Shown in pieces: positions 1 through 7,385 of a stretch of 7,385 nt of DNA (the stretch's first letter is position 1; every line of letters starts with the position of its first letter). The notes below the pieces were generated by a model. The model was not told the origin of the DNA and searched no databases. It worked only from the letters and a program-made list of their open reading frames with translations. The stretch is taken from the IMG/VR virus record IMGVR_UViG_2585427757_000019; one strand, 5' to 3'. The translations under genes were made by a program, and so were the position numbers. Source of the stretch: a virus. Taxonomy: Duplodnaviria > Heunggongvirae > Uroviricota > Caudoviricetes.

Positions 1-303
<303 letters not shown>

Positions 304-383
304 TCATCGAGATCTGCCACGCGCGGCTCCTTTTGTGCCGCATCCGGCACTGGAAAATTGAATATCTCAGCAGTGTTTGCCAT
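304..383 (-). pseudogene. Lambda O-like replication initiator, N-terminal fragment of about 27 codons truncated by the IS insertion
   Basis: Minus-strand ATG at 383-381 is preceded by GGGAGG (rc of 386-391). The translation MANTAEIFNFPVPDAAQKEPRVADLDD resembles the lambda O N-terminus as I recall it (MTNTAKILNFGRGNFAGQERNVADLDDGY...). After LDD the frame continues into IS sequence (VNAKIIGRF...) and stops at 243-245. The listed ORF 243..473 is this chimera with an upstream in-frame extension. Confidence 0.5.
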
Positions 384-469
384 AATTCCTCCCGCAATGA
401 GTGTGTTACGATTTGCACCTGAAAGTCGGTTCTGTTCCAGCAGACCGGCTTTCGCCATTTCTGAACCTG

Positions 470-1009
470 TCATATCGCCCCCAGCATGGTAGTAACCATC
501 GCCATCAATGGACCAGCCAGATCTGGGTCCACACGAAACATCGACACAATACCTTCACTAATTTCCTTCAGTTTCTGGTGGCGTGGTGCGTTGAGAATGA
601 CAGCCTGTTTTGCCTCACTGAGTTCCTTTTCCATTTCAGCCAACCTAGCCATGAAGCTATCCTGCTCAACCAGGTAACCGCGATATTCCAGCGGTAGTAC
701 CGCCAGAATTGCCGGGGTCAGTTCACGCACGTTATTTCGGTATTTTTCAGAATCGAATTTGTTATCGAGGAAGCGGAACAGCTTCTGGCGTGCACGGCTG
801 ACATCATCAGGGAAATCGATGGTGCCGCCGCCCTGCTCCCGATACTCATTCACAATGAGTGTGGCAACGACATCCTGATTATCTACAGCCGACCAGGCGC
901 GGACGGCATCACGGATTTTTTCGTGGCCTGGCACCTGTTTTGTTTGAGAACGATTTATCACCGCAGTCGGGCTAAATCCGCTAGTCTGTTGGTATGTAAG
1001 TGGTTGCAT
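470..1009 (-). CDS. Regulatory protein in the cII position, possibly YdaT-like (functional CII analogue of Rac/CP-933P-type prophages)
   Basis: 179-aa ORF directly downstream of the cro-like gene on the same strand. AAGGAG lies about 8 nt upstream of the ATG at 1009. Its stop overlaps the next ATG (ATGA at 470-473). Motifs such as EYREQGGG and LTPAILAVLPLEYR are reminiscent of YdaT as I remember it, but this is a tentative family call. Confidence 0.55.
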   Translation of the reverse strand: MQPLTYQQTSGFSPTAVINRSQTKQVPGHEKIRDAVRAWSAVDNQDVVATLIVNEYREQGGGTIDFPDDVSRARQKLFRFLDNKFDSEKYRNNVRELTPAILAVLPLEYRGYLVEQDSFMARLAEMEKELSEAKQAVILNAPRHQKLKEISEGIVSMFRVDPDLAGPLMAMVTTMLGAI

Positions 1010-1078
1010 AATTGACTCCTTTAGTTTGAATTGACTGTTAAGTTGATTGCTTATTGTTAAAGAGCGTGAAATGGAAAT

Positions 1079-1309
1079 TTAAGCTGCGTTCTTTTCGGTG
1101 TGTGGAAACAACTTCGGAAGATCCGGGCGAATCTGGTATGCCTTCACTACTCCACCAGTAGCCGTAACAATGCTGCCGACATGTTCAGGGGATACCTTTG
1201 CTTTGTTGTGAAGCCACTTATAGACGGCCTGCTGTGAAACTTCGCAAGCAGCGCCCAGTTTCTTTTGTGAACCAACGATATTGATCGCTGTTTTGATAGC
1301 TGGGTTCAT
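1079..1309 (-). CDS. Cro-type HTH repressor, YdaS-like
   Basis: 76-aa ORF divergent from the repressor gene, with GGAGG 6-7 nt upstream of the ATG at 1309-1307. The helix-turn-helix segment GSQKKLGAACEVSQQAVYKWL and the RPDL motif fit the Cro/YdaS family. Confidence 0.7.
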   Translation of the reverse strand: MNPAIKTAINIVGSQKKLGAACEVSQQAVYKWLHNKAKVSPEHVGSIVTATGGVVKAYQIRPDLPKLFPHTEKNAA

Positions 1310-1413
1310 AACAACCTCCGTGGTTAATTTGAATCAAGATTAAAACTATGGTTGTTTTTAGTCAACAACCATTTTCGTTTGATGGAATAAAACCTTGGTT
1401 GTACATTTGGACT
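1310..1413. promoter_or_regulatory. OR-like divergent operator/promoter region (pR toward the cro-like gene, pRM toward cI)
   Basis: Perfect inverted repeat ATGGTTGTT-N7-AACAACCAT at 1348-1372. Further AACAACC/GGTTGT half-sites at 1310-1316 and 1397-1402. Minus-strand promoter candidate: -35 TTGACT (rc of 1360-1365), 17-bp spacer, -10 TAATCT (rc of 1337-1342). Plus-strand promoter candidate: -35 TTGATG (1379-1384), 17-bp spacer, -10 TACATT (1402-1407), placing the start site at or next to the cI ATG at 1414. Confidence 0.5.
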
Positions 1414-2103
1414 ATGAAAACAACACTCTCAGAAAGACTTAAAGAAGCCAGATTAGCGCGAGGCCTTACACAAAAGGCGCTTGGGGATTTGGTCGGGGTT
1501 AGCCAGGCTGCTATTCAGAAAATCGAAACAGGGAAAGCTAATCAAACAACTAAAATCGTGGAGATCGCGAACGCTTTGGGTGTGCGCGCAGAATGGTTAT
1601 CTTCTGGCGTTGGAAATATGTCAGATAGTACAGTGCAACCAATACAATCAACTGTCAGCCATTCCAAATACTTCAAGATTGACGTTCTTGATATAGAAGT
1701 CAGTGCTGGGCCGGGAGTCATCAACCGTGAGTTTGTAGAAGTTCTACGCTCGGTTGAGTACTCGTTTGACGATGCTCGTCACATGTTCGATGGTAGGAAG
1801 GCGGAAAATATCCGCATCATTAACGTGCGTGGTGACAGCATGTCAGGAACGATCGAACCAGGTGATCTGCTGTTCGTTGATATCACAGTTAAATCTTTCG
1901 ACGGTGATGGTATCTATGCGTTTCTGTACGACGACACAGCCCATGTAAAGCGCCTGCAAATGATGAAGGATAAGCTGCTGGTCATCTCTGATAACAAAAG
2001 CTACTCACCGTGGGACCCGATCGAGAAAGACGAGATGAACCGGGTGTTCATCTTCGGTAAGGTTATTGGGAGCATGCCGCAGACATATAGGAAGCATGGG
2101 TAG
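1414..2103 (+). CDS. cI: CI-type prophage repressor (N-terminal XRE HTH, C-terminal S24 LexA-like autopeptidase)
   Basis: HTH segment LTQKALGDLVGVSQAAIQKIETG. Ala-Gly candidate cleavage site in EVSAGPG. Catalytic Ser in GDSMSG and Lys in HVKRL. Start placed at 1414 (MKTTLSERL...) because the upstream in-frame ATG at 1348 lies inside the operator palindrome and the promoter geometry predicts a leaderless transcript from 1414. Alternative start 1348 would give 251 aa. Confidence 0.85.
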   Translation: MKTTLSERLKEARLARGLTQKALGDLVGVSQAAIQKIETGKANQTTKIVEIANALGVRAEWLSSGVGNMSDSTVQPIQSTVSHSKYFKIDVLDIEVSAGPGVINREFVEVLRSVEYSFDDARHMFDGRKAENIRIINVRGDSMSGTIEPGDLLFVDITVKSFDGDGIYAFLYDDTAHVKRLQMMKDKLLVISDNKSYSPWDPIEKDEMNRVFIFGKVIGSMPQTYRKHG

Positions 2104-2224
2104 TACCAATTAAAAATTATCAACTGGGCATTGTGCTCATTCAGTAAAGAACTAATTCCTATCTTTGCTCTAGGTAGTAATATTAAGCCACCGCAATAAT
2201 ATCTTTACCTAACGGCGTAAGAAT

Positions 2225-2251
2225 CCCGGTCACCGTGCCGGGTTTTCTTTT
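2225..2251 (+). terminator. Rho-independent terminator downstream of the repressor gene
   Basis: GC stem CCCGG (2225-2229) / CCGGG (2238-2242) with an 8-nt loop, followed by TTTTCTTTT (2243-2251). Confidence 0.6.
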
Positions 2252-2345
2252 GCCCTCCCCTCATCACACACACCGTTAAAAAAACCACCATAACCTCGCT
2301 TCAGTTATCGCTATGCGATTCAAGTCACAAAATAAATCCATCCTA

Positions 2346-2421
2346 AATACAACCAGTTATATCTAAAACAACCAATAAAACAACTTTTGTTGTTGACGAT
2401 AAAACAACTATAGTTTTAAAT
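2346..2421 (+). promoter_or_regulatory. OL/pL-like region: operator repeats and rightward promoter candidates
   Basis: TAAAACAAC occurs three times (2364-2372, 2376-2384, 2400-2408), with a related ATACAACC at 2347-2354 and a palindrome AACAAC-TTTT-GTTGTT at 2379-2394; these share the ACAAC(C) core with the OR sites. Promoter option 1: -35 TTGACG 2393-2398, 17 bp, -10 TTAAAT 2416-2421. Option 2: -35 TTGTTG 2387-2392, 16 bp, -10 TATAGT 2409-2414. Confidence 0.45.
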
Positions 2422-2614
2422 AAGTTCATCGCAACAACACAACGATACGGCAACTACCTGATTCACCGTTGCGATGACCGCTTAGATCCGCAGTTTGAAT
2501 TTCAGCAGGCTTCGGGGAGTGCGAGGGGTGAAACGGACGCGTGAACGTCGGTGTGACCAGCTGAAATTAACTCAACATTTCATACCTTAGTCGCTTCAAC
2601 GAGGCGGCTTAGTT

Positions 2615-2905
2615 ATGACAACCGGCGGCCATCCACCGCCTGAATACGCGCAGAAGTCTCTATATGTTCAGCAGCCCAGCTTACGGGCAGGAGTTTTTAT
2701 GGTTCATCAACATTATGGAACGCAGACCGTTAATCGAGGTGCGGTCATGCCAGGAATGCTGGTCAAACACAAAGATGGTACCTGGACTGCATCAGCTAAT
2801 TTACGCGGACGGCTTTATCTGCATCGCGGCATCGAGCGCACTTATACCCGTGATTTGCTCGTGGAAGTTTTTCTCGACGGACGCGGTAACGGCCTGAATC
2901 ACTAA
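2615..2905 (+). CDS. Hypothetical protein in the kil position immediately upstream of gam; start uncertain
   Basis: 96-codon ORF ending 75 bp before gam. Candidate starts: 2615 (GAGG 10 nt upstream), 2699 (AGGAG 6 nt upstream, 68 aa), 2747 (GAGGT 6 nt upstream, 52 aa). No resemblance to lambda Kil, CIII or N as I recall them. Confidence 0.45.
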
Positions 2906-2980
2906 TCCCCTTTCCTGTTTTCCTAATCAGCCTGGCATTTCGCGGGCGATATTTTCACAGCCATTTTCAGGAGGTCAGCC

Positions 2981-3277
2981 ATGAACGCTTATTACATTCA
3001 GGATCGTCTTGAGGCTCAGAGCTGGGCGCGTCACTACCAGCAGATCGCCCGTGAAGAGAAAGAGGCAGAACTGGCAGACGACATGGAAAAAGGCCTGCCC
3101 CAGCACCTGTTTGAATCGCTATGCATCGATCATTTGCAACGCCACGGGGCCAGCAAAAAAGCCATTACCCGTGCGTTTGATGACGATGTTGAGTTTCAGG
3201 AGCGCATGGCAGAACACATCCAGTACATGGTTGAAACCATTGCTCACCACCAGGTTGATATTGATTCAGAGGTATAA
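2981..3277 (+). CDS. gam: Gam, host RecBCD nuclease inhibitor (short 98-aa form)
   Basis: Translation [21 protein letters not shown]...[10 protein letters not shown] matches lambda Gam from memory with only a few substitutions. AGGAGG-like SD (caggagg) lies upstream. Confidence 0.95.
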
Positions 3278-3282
3278 AACGG

Positions 3283-4068
3283 ATGAGTACAGCACTCGCA
3301 ACGCTGGCAGGGAAGCTGGCTGAACGTGTCGGCATGGATTCTGTCGACCCACAGGAACTGATCACCACTCTTCGCCAGACGGCATTTAAAGGTGATGCCA
3401 GCGATGCGCAGTTCATCGCATTGCTGATCGTCGCCAACCAGTACGGCCTTAATCCGTGGACGAAAGAAATTTACGCCTTCCCTGATAAGCAGAACGGCAT
3501 TGTTCCGGTGGTGGGCGTTGATGGCTGGTCCCGCATCATCAATGAAAACCAGCAGTTTGATGGCATGAACTTTGAGCAGGACAATGAATCCTGTACATGC
3601 CGGATTTACCGCAAGGACCGTAATCATCCGATCTGCGTTACCGAATGGATGGATGAATGCCGCCGCGAACCATTCAAAACCCGCGAAGGCAGAGAAATCA
3701 CGGGGCCGTGGCAGTCGCATCCCAAACGGATGTTACGGCATAAAGCCATGATTCAGTGTGCCCGTCTGGCCTTCGGATTTGCTGGTATCTATGACAAGGA
3801 TGAAGCCGAGCGCATTGTCGAAAATACTGCATACACTGCAGAACGTCAGCCAGAACGCGACATCACTCCGGTTAACGATGAAACCATGCAGGAGATTAAC
3901 ACTCTGCTGATCGCCCTGGATAAAACATGGGATGACGACTTATTGCCGCTCTGTTCCCAGATATTTCGCCGCGACATTCGCGCATCGTCAGAACTGACAC
4001 AGGCCGAAGCAGTGAAAGCTCTTGGATTCCTGAAACAGAAAGCCACTGAGCAGAAGGTGGCAGCATGA
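3283..4068 (+). CDS. bet: Bet (Red beta) single-strand annealing protein
   Basis: 261-aa translation [66 protein letters not shown]... is nearly identical to lambda Bet as I remember it. The stop overlaps the exo start (ATGA at 4065-4068). Confidence 0.97.
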
Positions 4069-4745
4069 TACCGGACATTATCCTGCAGCGTACCGGGATC
4101 GACGTGAGAGCTGTCGAACAGGGGGATGATGCATGGCACAAATTACGGCTCGGCGTCATCACCGCTTCAGAAGTTCACAACGTGATAGCAAAGCCCCGCT
4201 CAGGAAAGAAGTGGCCTGACATGAAAATGTCCTACTTCCACACCCTGCTGGCTGAGGTTTGCACCGGTGTGGCTCCGGAAGTTAATGCTAAGGCGCTGGC
4301 CTGGGGAAAACAGTACGAGAACGACGCCAGAACCCTGTTTGAATTCACTTCCGGCGTGAATATTACTGAATCCCCGATCATCTATCGCGACGAAAGTATG
4401 CGCACCGCCTGCTCCCCCGATGGTTTATGCAGTGACGGCAACGGCCTTGAACTGAAATGCCCGTTTACCTCCCGGGATTTCATGAAATTCCGGCTCGGTG
4501 GTTTCGAGGCAATAAAATCGGCTTACATGGCCCAGGTGCAGTACAGCATGTGGGTGACGCGAAAAGATGCCTGGTACTTTGCCAACTATGACCCGCGCAT
4601 GAAGCGTGAAGGCCTGCATTATGTCGTGATTGAGCGGAATGAAAAGTACATGGCGAGTTTTGACGAGATGGTGCCGGAGTTCATCGAAAAAATGGACGAG
4701 GCACTGGCTGAAATTGGTTTTGTATTTGGGGAGCAATGGCGATGA
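4065..4745 (+). CDS. exo: Exo (Red alpha) 5'-3' dsDNA exonuclease
   Basis: 226-aa translation [65 protein letters not shown]... is nearly identical to lambda Exo as I remember it. Confidence 0.97.
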
Positions 4746-4924
4746 CGCATCCTCACGATAATATCCGGGTAGGCGCGATCACTTTCGTCTACTCCGTTAC
4801 AAAGCGAGGCTGGGTATTTCCCGGCCTTTCTGTTATCAGAAATCCACTGAAAGCACAGCGGCTGGCTGAGAAGATAAATAATAAACGGGAGGCGGTATGC
4901 ACAAAGCATCTCCTGTTGAGTTAA
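4742..4924 (+). CDS. Small protein of unknown function, lambda orf60a-like
   Basis: The ATG at 4742 overlaps the exo stop (ATGA), giving 60 aa ([60 protein letters not shown]). An in-frame ATG two codons upstream (4736) is the alternative start. Resembles lambda orf60a from memory. Confidence 0.65.
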
Positions 4925-5088
4925 GAACGAGTATTGAGATGGCACATAGCCTTGCTCAAATTGGAGTCAGGTTTGTGCCAATACCAGTAGAAACAGACGA
5001 AGAATTTCATACGTTAGCCACATCCCTTTCACAAAAGCTGGAAATGATGGTGGCGAAAGCAGAAGCAGATGAGAGAGACCAGGTATGA
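4897..5088 (+). CDS. Small protein of unknown function, lambda orf63-like
   Basis: 63-aa [66 protein letters not shown] overlapping the end of the previous ORF by 28 bp. Resembles lambda orf63 from memory. Confidence 0.65.
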   Translation: MHKASPVELRTSIEMAHSLAQIGVRFVPIPVETDEEFHTLATSLSQKLEMMVAKAEADERDQV

Positions 5089-5168
5089 CAACCACTGAAT
5101 GCATTTTTCTGGCAGCGGGCTTCATATTCTGTGTGCTTATGCTTGCCGACATGGGGCTTGTTCAATGA
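5085..5168 (+). CDS. Candidate 27-aa hydrophobic micro-protein (MTTTECIFLAAGFIFCVLMLADMGLVQ); not in the supplied ORF track
   Basis: The ATG at 5085 overlaps the orf63-like stop (ATGA) and its TGA stop at 5166-5168 overlaps the ATG of the next ORF at 5165 (ATGA). A 16-residue uncharged core (CIFLAAGFIFCVLMLA) is long enough for one transmembrane helix. GAGAGAGA/AGG purine run lies upstream. Confidence 0.3.
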   Translation: MTTTECIFLAAGFIFCVLMLADMGLVQ

Positions 5169-5380
5169 CACCTCAGCAAGAAAACGCCCTTCGCAGCATT
5201 GCCCGTCAGGCTAATTCTGAAATCAAAAAAGCCAGACAGCATTTTCCGGATAAAAACGTCGATGACATTTGCCGTAGCGTACTAAAGAAGCACCGCGAAA
5301 CGGTAACGCTGATGGGATTCACACCGACTCATTTAAGCCTGGCGATCGGCATGTTGAACGGCGTCTTTAAGGAACGGTAA
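5165..5380 (+). CDS. Hypothetical small protein (71 aa), orf61-position
   Basis: ORF MTPQQENALRSIARQANSEIKKARQHFPDKNVDDICRSVLKKHRETVTLMGFTPTHLSLAIGMLNGVFKER. Start chosen at 5165 because of the ATGA coupling to the upstream micro-ORF. The track's longer version (5099) would overlap that micro-ORF. Confidence 0.5.
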   Translation: MTPQQENALRSIARQANSEIKKARQHFPDKNVDDICRSVLKKHRETVTLMGFTPTHLSLAIGMLNGVFKER

Positions 5381-5402
5381 ACATGAAAAGCAAAATCATC
5401 AG

Positions 5403-5423
5403 GGAGCTACAGGCTCCTTTTTT
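5403..5423 (+). terminator. Rho-independent terminator inside the leftward (pL-type) operon
   Basis: Stem GGAGC (5403-5407) / GCTCC (5413-5417) with loop TACAG, followed by TTTTTT (5418-5423). Confidence 0.65.
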
Positions 5424-5478
5424 ATTATTCGCATTTACCCTCAAGCGTATTAACCAACAATTCAGGGATTAATGAAAG

Positions 5479-5697
5479 ATGGCAGACATCATTGATTCAG
5501 CATCAGAAATCGAAGAATTACAGCGCAATACAGCAATAAAAATGCGTCGTCTGAACTACCAGACTGTATCCGCAACTCATTGTTGTGAGTGTGGCGATCC
5601 GATAGATGAGCGAAGACGCCTGGCTGTTCAGGGTTGTCGGACTTGTGCGAGTTGCCAGGAGGAGATCGAACTTAAGAACAAACAATGGGGACTGTGA
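5479..5697 (+). CDS. TraR/DksA-family C4 zinc-finger protein (lambda Orf73-type)
   Basis: 72-aa ORF with the paired Cys motifs C-x2-C ... C-x2-C (HCCECGDPIDERRRLAVQGCRTCASCQEE), which is the arrangement found in TraR and in the DksA C-terminal zinc finger. Confidence 0.75.
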   Translation: MADIIDSASEIEELQRNTAIKMRRLNYQTVSATHCCECGDPIDERRRLAVQGCRTCASCQEEIELKNKQWGL

Positions 5698-5744
5698 TGG
5701 CCTCAAAGCAGCAAATTTCAACATCGTCCAACTGAGGTGTAAAA

Positions 5745-6023
5745 ATGTTCAGAATCATTTTTCCTAACACCTGGTACGTCGACCACCACGGCACTCCCTG
5801 CAAAATCCTGCGTTCTACCCACAACAAAGTTCACTACATCCGAAAAGGCAGAACATGTATCGCCAGCATGTTCCGCTTTAATCATGACTTTGAACCTGTG
5901 AATAAAGCTGATGCAGATCGGATAGCAGAAGAGATCGAAACGGCAGAACACATTAAGAAGTTACGTGACATGCGTTCAAAAAGCAGAGGTAACCATGGAA
6001 TCATACAGCCTCACACTCGATGA
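5745..6023 (+). CDS. Hypothetical protein (92 aa), His/Cys-rich, in the ea8.5 position next to xis
   Basis: GAGGTG lies 5 nt upstream of the ATG at 5745. The ORF overlaps the xis start by 29 nt. H/C-rich N-terminal half (HHGTPCKILRSTHNKVHYIRKGRTCIASMFRFNH) suggests possible metal binding. No family recognised. Confidence 0.45.
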   Translation: MFRIIFPNTWYVDHHGTPCKILRSTHNKVHYIRKGRTCIASMFRFNHDFEPVNKADADRIAEEIETAEHIKKLRDMRSKSRGNHGIIQPHTR

Positions 6024-6366
6024 GGCCTGTCAGTTTCTTAAGATATCCAGACCAACCGCCACCAACTGGATACGAACAGGCCGCCTACAGGCAACACGTA
6101 AAGATCCAACCAAGCCAAAATCTCCTTACCTCACAACACGGCAAGCCTGCATTGCGGCGCTTCAGTCTCCGCTGCATACTGTCCAGGTGAGCGCGGGTGA
6201 TGGCATAACAGAGGAAAGAAAATGTCACTCTTCCGCAGAAATGAAATATGGTATGCCTCGTATTCGCTCCCGGGCGGGAAACGAATTAAGGAATCTCTTG
6301 GCACAAAGGACAAGCGGCAAGCTCAGGAGTTGCACGACAAGCGAAAAGCAGAACTCTGGCGAGTAG
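5995..6366 (+). CDS. xis: Excisionase / AlpA-type HTH DNA-binding protein; 3' end uncertain
   Basis: GAGG lies 5 nt upstream of the ATG at 5995. The N-terminal segment [26 protein letters not shown] is a typical excisionase-family HTH, and the gene sits immediately upstream of int. The frame stays open to 6366, overlapping int by 145 nt in another frame. Confidence 0.6.
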
Positions 6367-7385
6367 AAAAGCTAGGGGATTTACCTGATGTCACTTTTGA
6401 AGAGGCCTGCCTAAGATGGCTTGAGGAAAAAGCTGATAAAAAATCTCTCGATTCAGATAAAAGCCGGATTGAGTTCTGGCTTGAACATTTTGAGGGTATA
6501 AGGCTTAAAGATATCTCGGAGGCAAAGATTTACTCTGCTGTAAGCAGAATGCATAACAGAAAGACGAAAGAAATATGGAAACAGAAAGTTCAGGCCGCCA
6601 TCAGGAAAGGTAAAGAACCGCCTGTTTATGAACCAAAGCCAGTATCAACTCAGACAAAGGCAAAGCATCTTGCCATGATAAAGGCCATTCTCCGTGCTGC
6701 AGAACGCGACTGGAAGTGGCTGGAAAAAGCGCCTGTCATCAAGATACCAGCGGTCAGAAACAAGCGAGTCAGATGGCTGGAAAAGGAGGAAGCAAAACGC
6801 CTTATTGATGAGTGCCCCGAACCACTGAAATCTGTCGTCAAGTTTGCGCTGGCAACTGGTCTGAGAAAGTCGAACATCATAAATCTGGAATGGCAACAAA
6901 TCGACATGCAGCGACGAGTTGCCTGGGTGAATCCAGAAGAGAGCAAATCAAACCGCGCCATTGGTGTGGCGCTGAACGATACCGCCTGTAAAGTGTTGCG
7001 TGATCAAATAGGCAAGCATCACAAATGGGTGTTTGTACATACCAAGGCGGCTAAGCGAGCAGATGGAACATCAACGCCTGCGGTCAGGAAGATGCGCATC
7101 GACAGCAAGACATCATGGCTATCAGCTTGTCGTCGTGCAGGAATTGAAGATTTCCGTTTCCATGACCTCAGACACACCTGGGCAAGCTGGCTGATTCAGT
7201 CAGGCGTCCCATTATCAGTGCTTCAGGAAATGGGCGGATGGGAGTCCATAGAAATGGTTCGTAGGTATGCTCACCTTGCGCCTAATCATTTGACAGAGCA
7301 TGCGAGGAAAATAGACGACATTTTTGGTGATAATGTCCCAAATATGTCCCACTCTGGAATTATGGAGGATATAAAGAAGGCGTAA
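6222..7385 (+). CDS. int: Tyrosine-type site-specific integrase
   Basis: 387-aa ORF with GAGGA upstream. N-terminal arm-binding-type domain ([27 protein letters not shown]...). C-terminal catalytic motifs HDLRHTWAS and RRYAHL (catalytic Tyr). Overall resemblance to Stx-phage 933W-type integrases from memory. The stop codon is the last triplet of the window, so any attachment site lies beyond it. Confidence 0.93.

Follow-up and report, generated by a model that had tools for sequence, protein, structure and literature searches.

The question posed by this locus is how an early-left operon that encodes no N protein could be transcribed past an intrinsic terminator into xis and int. The window, by which we mean the whole 7385-nt stretch of DNA analysed here, is a lambdoid prophage of Escherichia coli, and nucleotides 302–7385 are 100% identical to PhiR34_1, a DLP12/lambda-like phage of 44.6 kb with a Q gene and no annotated N; the early-left direction is the + strand of the window. 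An earlier note on this DNA had proposed that the leader following OL/pL lacks an N-like gene and instead carries two long inverted repeats, which might form an antitermination RNA conceptually like put of phage HK022. The absence of N is borne out: neither the window nor PhiR34_1 over its full length yielded an N gene, family-profile searches included. The terminator, which the note had placed at 5403–5423, is likewise present, with a stem of eight pairs at 5401–5419 followed by TTTTATTATT, and it lies between an orf61-like gene and a TraR/DksA-like gene. The downstream operon has the lambda order of gam-bet-exo, terminator and xis-int, and in the one stretch compared, the 321 nt around the terminator (5160–5480), it is 96.9% identical to the early-left operon of lambda. 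The same terminator is thus found in the N-dependent operon of lambda and in the N-less operon of the window.

The operon beyond OL/pL comprises, in order, kil, gam, bet, exo, four small open reading frames (ORFs), of which two precede and two follow the terminator, xis and int (Table 1). Family profiles start Kil at the ATG at 2699 (residues 1–68 align to positions 1–70 of NCBIfam NF008465), behind a GGAG Shine–Dalgarno sequence at 2688–2691, and the leader is therefore about 271 nt long. The earlier estimate of about 190 nt between the promoter and the first ORF is sound as a distance, there being 187 nt from the predicted +1 to the ATG at 2615, but the first real gene is kil. The annotation of Kil is inconsistent between the public records PV340567 and PV340559: the PhiR47_2 record has a 128-residue Kil with its start inside the non-coding leader, and the PhiR34_1 record has no Kil and gives a 77-residue ORF in another frame (2664–2897) instead. 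At the other end of the window, identity to PhiR34_1 ends at 301/302 and nucleotides 31–246 encode the C-terminus of an IstB-like protein of the IS21 family, so that an insertion sequence appears to interrupt replication gene O; the prophage copy in the window is probably defective.

Table 1. Features of the immunity region, leader and early-left operon, in window coordinates
Feature	Position	Strand	Remarks
YdaT-like gene	470–1009	−	
cro/YdaS-like gene	1079–1309	−	
cI repressor gene	1414–2103		S24 peptidase domain
cI terminator	2225–2250		followed by OL/pL
OL operators and pL promoter	2356–2421	+	three TAAAACAAC half-sites; direct/inverted repeat search
Predicted +1 of early-left operon	2428 (A)	+	predicted from its place 7 nt past the −10
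HP1, 5′-terminal hairpin (RNA form of repeat 1)	2428–2475	+	8-bp stem 2428–2435/2468–2475; 32-nt CA-rich loop
Conserved core, subtype I (candidate antiterminator RNA)	2473–2570	+	about 98 nt; gap-free against subtypes II and III
Stem-loop 1	2479–2523	+	helices 2479–2481/2521–2523, 2488–2490/2513–2515, 2492–2497/2506–2511
Repeat 2, arm 1	2498–2506	+	apical loop of stem-loop 1 plus C2506
Stem-loop 2	2524–2562	+	helices 2524–2525/2561–2562, 2527–2529/2556–2558, 2533–2534/2551–2552, 2536–2539/2546–2549
Repeat 2, arm 2	2560–2568	+	3′ end of stem-loop 2 plus tail
HP3, junction hairpin	2581–2617	+	stem 2589–2597/2601–2609, closed by CAUA 2581–2584 with UAUG 2614–2617
Conserved mini-ORF start	2615–2698	+	ATGACAACCGGCGGCCATCCACC (MTTGGHPP); in kil frame here; lowest diversity, 0.018
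kil (FtsZ inhibitor, 68 residues)	2699–2905	+	PHROG 294, E = 1e-37; first real gene of operon
Intrinsic terminator	5401–5429	+	upstream of TraR-like gene, xis and int

Read directly from the sequence, the pL promoter consists of a −35 hexamer, TTGACG (2393–2398), a 17-nt spacer and a −10 hexamer, TTAAAT (2416–2421); the promoter scan did not list it because of the T at position 2 of the −10. The operator motif of OL also occurs at OR (1340–1372). An independent, 4A7-like immunity type (TTGATA, 17 nt, TATTAT) predicts the identical +1, and 2428/2429 is where the two immunity types become homologous. The first 40 nt of the predicted transcript are C-rich and G-poor (35% C, 12% G) and in this respect rut-like. 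Its CA-rich start (CAACAACACAACGAU, 2432–2446) contains ACACAAC, close to CACAACA, the GcvB R1 target consensus that is used by the prophage anti-sRNA AgvB (Tree et al. 2014). A Klebsiella phage that shares the operator type (locus L129) and HK639-type leaders (CAUCGAAACGAAACAUCGA) have similar CA-rich starts.

The leader contains a conserved core that occurs in three subtypes, that of the window being subtype I. A covariance model of the core, R2, scores the window's core at 120.7 bits, this sequence being among its training members. The three subtypes share a consensus fold of two stem-loops side by side, with 99.4% of cells paired and four compensatory pairs, compared with 0–1 in slid controls. 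Two of these are in stem-loop 1, at 2492:2511 (A:U to C:G) and 2493:2510 (G:C to A:U), below an apical loop, AAUUUCAG, at 2498–2505 in the RNAalifold consensus. The other two are in stem-loop 2, at 2533:2552 (A:U, G.U or G:C) and 2537:2548 (A:U to G:C), and here a further position, 2535:2550, varies by subtype as G.G, G:C or U.G. The four compensatory changes on the transcribed strand argue for selection on RNA pairing, the covariation being drawn from three subtypes only and hence from few independent events.

The whole leader folds no better than shuffled sequence, with z-scores of −0.35 and −0.39, and competing folds of similar energy exist. An alignment from within E. coli, at 98% identity, shows double compensatory changes neither for a fold based on the repeats nor for an irregular hairpin of 116 nt (2448–2563, about 40 bp), which is the minimum-energy fold of the majority variant. 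Subtypes II and III and immunity type C lack the 5′ strand of this long hairpin, and we rejected it as the conserved fold. A small hairpin suggested by energy minimisation (2510–2514/2522–2526) was also discarded, since its pairing is lost in subtype II and with the common U2512C change. In one 3′ context, that of loci L214–L225, an A-rich spacer comes directly after the subtype II core, and then a strong Shine–Dalgarno sequence, a three-codon mini-ORF (AUG AAG CAC UAA) and some 100 nt of GC-rich, apparently structured sequence; in the same loci the complementarity of repeat 2 reaches 12 bp.

How do the inverted repeats relate to this fold? As sequence features, both are real. Repeat 1 pairs TCATCGCAAC (2426–2435) with GTTGCGATGA (2468–2477), 10 bp of 100% complementarity with the arms 32 nt apart, and repeat 2 pairs AATTTCAGC (2498–2506) with GCTGAAATT (2560–2568) and can be extended to 12 nt with one mismatch (2498–2509/2557–2568). 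The small GACG/CGTC hairpin (2536–2539/2546–2549) that had been described within repeat 2 is present too. A chance origin is improbable, as had been argued: a perfect repeat of at least 10 bp with a spacer of 3–60 nt arose in 8 of 1000 dinucleotide shuffles of 2421–2614, and in 30 of 1000 shuffles of 2100–2700. With transcription predicted to start at A2428, repeat 1 would become in the RNA an 8-bp stem at the very 5′ end. This hairpin, HP1, has a z-score of −3.3 when folded alone, and its stem is paired in 77–78 of 78 unique variants, the A2428G variant retaining a G.U pair; its loop tolerates substitutions and 8-nt insertions. HP1 occurs only where subtype I is joined to immunity type A or B; type C and subtypes II and III lack it.

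In repeat 2, arm 1 is unchanged across all subtypes except for A2504G, and the complementarity of the arms is conserved, yet only wobble-type changes and no compensatory ones are seen. Of the 78 unique variants, 67 have A.C at 2498:2568, the last pair of the helix. The fold based on repeat 2 is the minimum-energy fold for the window's own variant and lies within a few kcal/mol of the two-stem-loop fold; with its terminal pairs broken in most variants, we reject the repeat 2 helix as the main fold. Arm 1 may pair with 2560–2567, either as a loop-to-tail pseudoknot or in an alternative fold. Overall, the proposal that the repeats are the structural basis of the leader is mostly wrong, repeat 1 being subtype-specific and repeat 2 without compensatory change. 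Covariation among homologous leaders does exist, but the four covarying pairs define another fold, to which only the GACG/CGTC hairpin of the structures first described belongs.

The leader is non-coding and under purifying selection. It is found, without annotation, in 2210 of the 5426 complete E. coli genomes, and its nucleotide diversity of 0.02–0.03 compares, among nearby neutral-like sites, with 0.089 in the next intergenic region and, at third codon positions, with 0.099 in kil and 0.095 in gam. The earlier note had missed a 31-residue, arginine-rich ORF (2495–2590) that overlaps the repeats and continues into kil in most variants. As a hidden N-like gene it fails on several counts: a TAG at 2588 interrupts it in 25 of 83 unique variants (30%), indels of 5 nt and 1 nt occur among the variants, substitutions are distributed 12/7/9 over codon positions 1/2/3 without an excess at the third, and there are zero protein-family matches. 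The arginine-rich frame is an artefact of purine-rich sequence.

Between the core and kil lies a second structured element, the junction hairpin HP3. Its base-pair probabilities are 0.82–1.0, it occludes the AUG at 2615, and its architecture is constant over at least seven different stem sequences among 71 unique variants. The mini-ORF that starts there leaves the kil frame in some variants through one-nucleotide deletions. The region is homologous to that which follows N in phi80 and that which follows the terminators in HK639. The junction element (2581–2640) is found in many lambdoid early-left operons (L006, 2985–3050; L007, 3001–3062; many IMG/VR loci), with over 40 different modules upstream of it. 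A tL1A-type terminator stands directly before the junction in the majority of phages, but the phage type of the window has none there.

The strongest indication of what the core might do comes from its exchange with put. Antiterminator RNAs of the HK022 putL/putR type have been described (Hwang et al. 2022, PMC9378689). A profile search with the leader identified a diverged homologue of the core in prophage locus L098, whose leader is that of HK639 in its 5′ part of about 75 nt and its 3′ part of about 60 nt; between these, the annotated putL-like cassette of HK639 (79 nt) is replaced by a 99-nt homologue of 2473–2569. HK022 putL/putR and the putL-like element of HK639 are known as antiterminator RNAs (King et al. 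1996, 2011), and King et al. (2011) are reported to have shown that of HK639 to work, with which its GenBank annotation agrees. The put RNAs of HK022 act in cis on terminator read-through with no phage protein required, and mutations in the β′ zinc-binding domain (rpoC), for example Y75N, block them. An IMG/VR scan found 118 loci sharing the 22-nt 5′ flank, and these carry either a put-like cassette (105) or the core (13) and nothing else. The 13 core loci with the HK639-type 5′ flank comprise two diverged subtypes, and some also share the 3′ flank. The common 5′ flank, together with the common 3′ flank in some loci, indicates that the core replaces put exactly. The two elements are also exclusive: among 317 loci, the core alone occurs in 142 and put alone in 120, and in no locus are they found together.

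The association of the core with early-left promoters is similarly broad. Subtype I follows such a promoter in three immunity contexts and subtypes II and III in at least eight, some 12 in all, and the core begins about 45–60 nt past the predicted pL +1; one of the promoter/operator regions preceding the diverged subtypes is HK639's own. Searching a genome collection with a 20-mer of the core gave only a chance 21-nt match, in an alphaproteobacterial metagenome-assembled genome, and a degenerate-pattern scan of metagenomes returned mostly random matches and two true additional members, L319 and L321. We found no description of the element in Rfam, in phage records or in the searchable literature.

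The core nevertheless does not belong to the put family. A covariance model of seven put RNAs, R1, scores its own training members at 55–95 bits (HK022 putL 94.7, HK639 92, putR 54.9) and finds nothing on the leader strand, whether in the window, over the complete phage or among subtype II loci; an nhmmer put profile has 0 matches in 142 core-bearing loci, and R2 finds nothing in put phages. The put motifs GAACGG, GUCGG, GGCGGG, AGGAUGA and CAAUG are missing from the core. The likeness to put is one of position and architecture and not of homology: both elements lie just downstream of an early-left promoter in N-less lambdoid phages with terminators beyond, occupy the same slot between identical flanks in HK639-type leaders and form two adjacent stem-loops with internal loops or bulges in about 70–100 nt. 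Copy number is usually one per locus in each case (put: one copy in 112 loci, two in eight). No second copy of the core, analogous to putR, follows pR in the 44.6-kb phage, and every core locus is single-copy; as most of the sampled put loci are single-copy too, a second copy is not a universal feature of put. A 26.5-bit R2 match in the stf tail-fibre gene of PhiR34_1 (L008, 39578–39655) lacks stem-loop 1 and was judged to be due to chance, R2 E-values being rough.

Comparisons with other known elements were equally negative. Rfam 15 gave no match in 2400–2700 at E-values up to 10 and two chance-level matches elsewhere in the window. No tRNA-like gene was found in the window by ARAGORN, no intrinsic terminator or attenuator was called in 2428–2700, where neither 2568 nor 2609 is followed by a U-rich tail, and there is no convincing match, judging from the sequence, to an rrn-type boxA, an RfaH ops element or a hammerhead-like three-way junction. 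The core and N/nutL of lambda take up the same slot, with pL on one side and, on the other, the conserved junction that in phi80 follows N. The core differs in that the window has neither an N gene directly after pL nor a boxA together with a boxB-type hairpin with a GNRA-like pentaloop. With the EAR (eps-associated RNA) element of Bacillus it would share, by hypothesis, the action of a cis-acting leader RNA in reading through distal terminators; EAR comes from an unrelated organism and operon, and no Rfam family matches the leader.

Terminators are a consistent feature of operons that contain the core. In L098, three terminator-like sites, two of them strong, lie downstream of the core on the operon strand, and L225 has a homologue of the annotated tL1A terminator of phi80 between the core and kil/gam. 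Subtype II and III cores are followed by varied small genes, the first of which is not kil, and then by strong intrinsic terminators, and no N-like ORF was found after the core in these loci. In PhiR34_1 itself no strong intrinsic terminator is predicted in the pR operon. With no tL1A-type terminator, no strong pR terminator and no second copy of the core, the need for read-through in this phage rests on one terminator and on Rho sites, which are unpredictable. It also counts against the antiterminator reading that an N-less relative that shares the operator type, Klebsiella phage ST101-KPC2phi6.1, has only a short leader of 75 nt, from which the core is missing. ARAGORN identified tRNA-Ile-like genes in the early-left operons of HK639 (L006, 2393–2462) and the subtype II prophage L098 (6974–7053, minus strand), in each case past the antiterminator cassette and ahead of the terminators.

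On the basis of its interchange with put, the mutual exclusivity of the two, the downstream terminators, the lack of an N gene and a two-hairpin fold supported by covariation, we propose, with a probability of roughly 0.55, that the core is a cis-acting antiterminator RNA, an analogue of put from a different sequence and structure family. The suggestion of a put-like RNA in the earlier note thus becomes the best-supported reading of the locus through the swap, the exclusivity and the N-less operons with their terminators, although membership of the put family does not stand. We infer antitermination activity, cis action, binding to RNA polymerase and independence of other factors from the analogy with put, an argument limited by the put-unlike sequence of the core, as equal position does not prove equal function. 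By this mechanism, transcription would start at about 2428, and the nascent RNA would fold into a subtype-specific 5′ hairpin and then into the two stem-loops. The folded RNA would remain on the polymerase that made it, as put does, and the RNA-bound polymerase would resist pausing and termination. It could then pass the terminator at 5401–5429 and any Rho-dependent sites and so reach xis and int without an N protein.

The best of the alternatives is that the leader is a cis-regulatory 5′ untranslated region that limits leaky expression of kil, HP1 protecting the transcript against decay from its 5′ end and the core or the long hairpin serving as an RNase III site or a Rho attenuator. The 8-bp stem exactly at the predicted 5′ end, the 116-nt minimum-energy hairpin of the majority variant, the rut-like first 40 nt and the presence of a toxic FtsZ inhibitor as the first gene are all consistent with such a role. 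There are precedents in the RNase III hairpin of the lambda N leader and the silencing of kilR by Rho in the Rac prophage. Conservation points the other way: HP1 and the 5′ strand of the long hairpin are missing from type C and from subtypes II and III, where the core is kept, and the first gene after subtype II and III cores is not kil but one of various small genes. Moreover, this explanation leaves the interchange with put and the exclusivity unaccounted for, and we consider it unlikely.

A second alternative is a nut-like recruitment site, at which the core would need a factor in trans, either host Nus proteins or an unrecognised phage protein. All the positional evidence for an antiterminator fits a nut-like site equally well; the long invariant single-stranded stretches, such as GGGGAGUGCGAGGGGUG, are suggestive of sequence-specific recognition, and a two-hairpin layout is common to many protein-binding RNAs. 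No N-like or arginine-rich protein is, however, encoded beside the core in any subtype, and the downstream genes differ wholly between the subtypes, so that a co-inherited phage factor is not evident. The best boxA-like sequence, CGCTTAGA, read by eye, is a poor match, agreeing with lambda boxA, CGCTCTTA, at five of eight positions. A recruitment site of this kind is, in our judgement, distinctly improbable.

It is still less probable that the leader acts as DNA, either as a protein-binding site, a possibility raised in the earlier note, or as a functionless recombination linker between phage modules. Module boundaries do coincide exactly with its ends, at 2428/2429 and about 2578, recombinational sweeps could give low diversity, and the thermodynamic signal is absent from the leader as a whole. 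Against this, the compensatory changes at four base pairs of the transcribed strand point to selection for pairing in RNA. The half-sites of repeat 1, whose centres are separated by 42 bp, are not shared by all the types, and exclusive alternation with put would not be expected of a neutral linker. Finally, a trans-acting small RNA or sponge, titrating GcvB for example through the CA-rich 5′ sequence, may be set aside as highly implausible, for although ACAACACAACG at 2436–2446 resembles the GcvB R1 target consensus and Hfq-dependent small RNAs such as lambda LPR1/PreS are possible in phage early-left operons, there is no terminator or U-tract to end a short transcript, type C and subtypes II and III have not kept the CA-rich part, the location and sequence are unlike those of AgvB/AsxR, the Pas small RNAs and LPR1/PreS, and pL is repressed in lysogens.

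To return to the antiterminator RNA, the natural swap between put and the core within identical flanks makes the proposal directly testable by existing put assays. If it is correct, an annotation gap would be filled in thousands of E. coli genomes. It would also explain the expression of the distal early-left genes, xis and int among them, in the very common N-less lambdoid prophages of the DLP12/lambda-like and Bievrevirus types. To our knowledge, put and EAR are the only RNA families that modify RNA polymerase by themselves, and a structure has been solved for put only. More tentatively, the core may represent a second class of RNA-only processive antiterminator, structurally unrelated to put, that binds the elongating E. 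coli RNA polymerase directly and makes it resistant to terminators, as put does. Some 40% of sequenced E. coli genomes would then hold this class in lambdoid prophages, and other prophages would hold its diverged subtypes; such a class would tell us whether the route through the β′ zinc-binding domain and exit channel is the sole way to a terminator-resistant polymerase.
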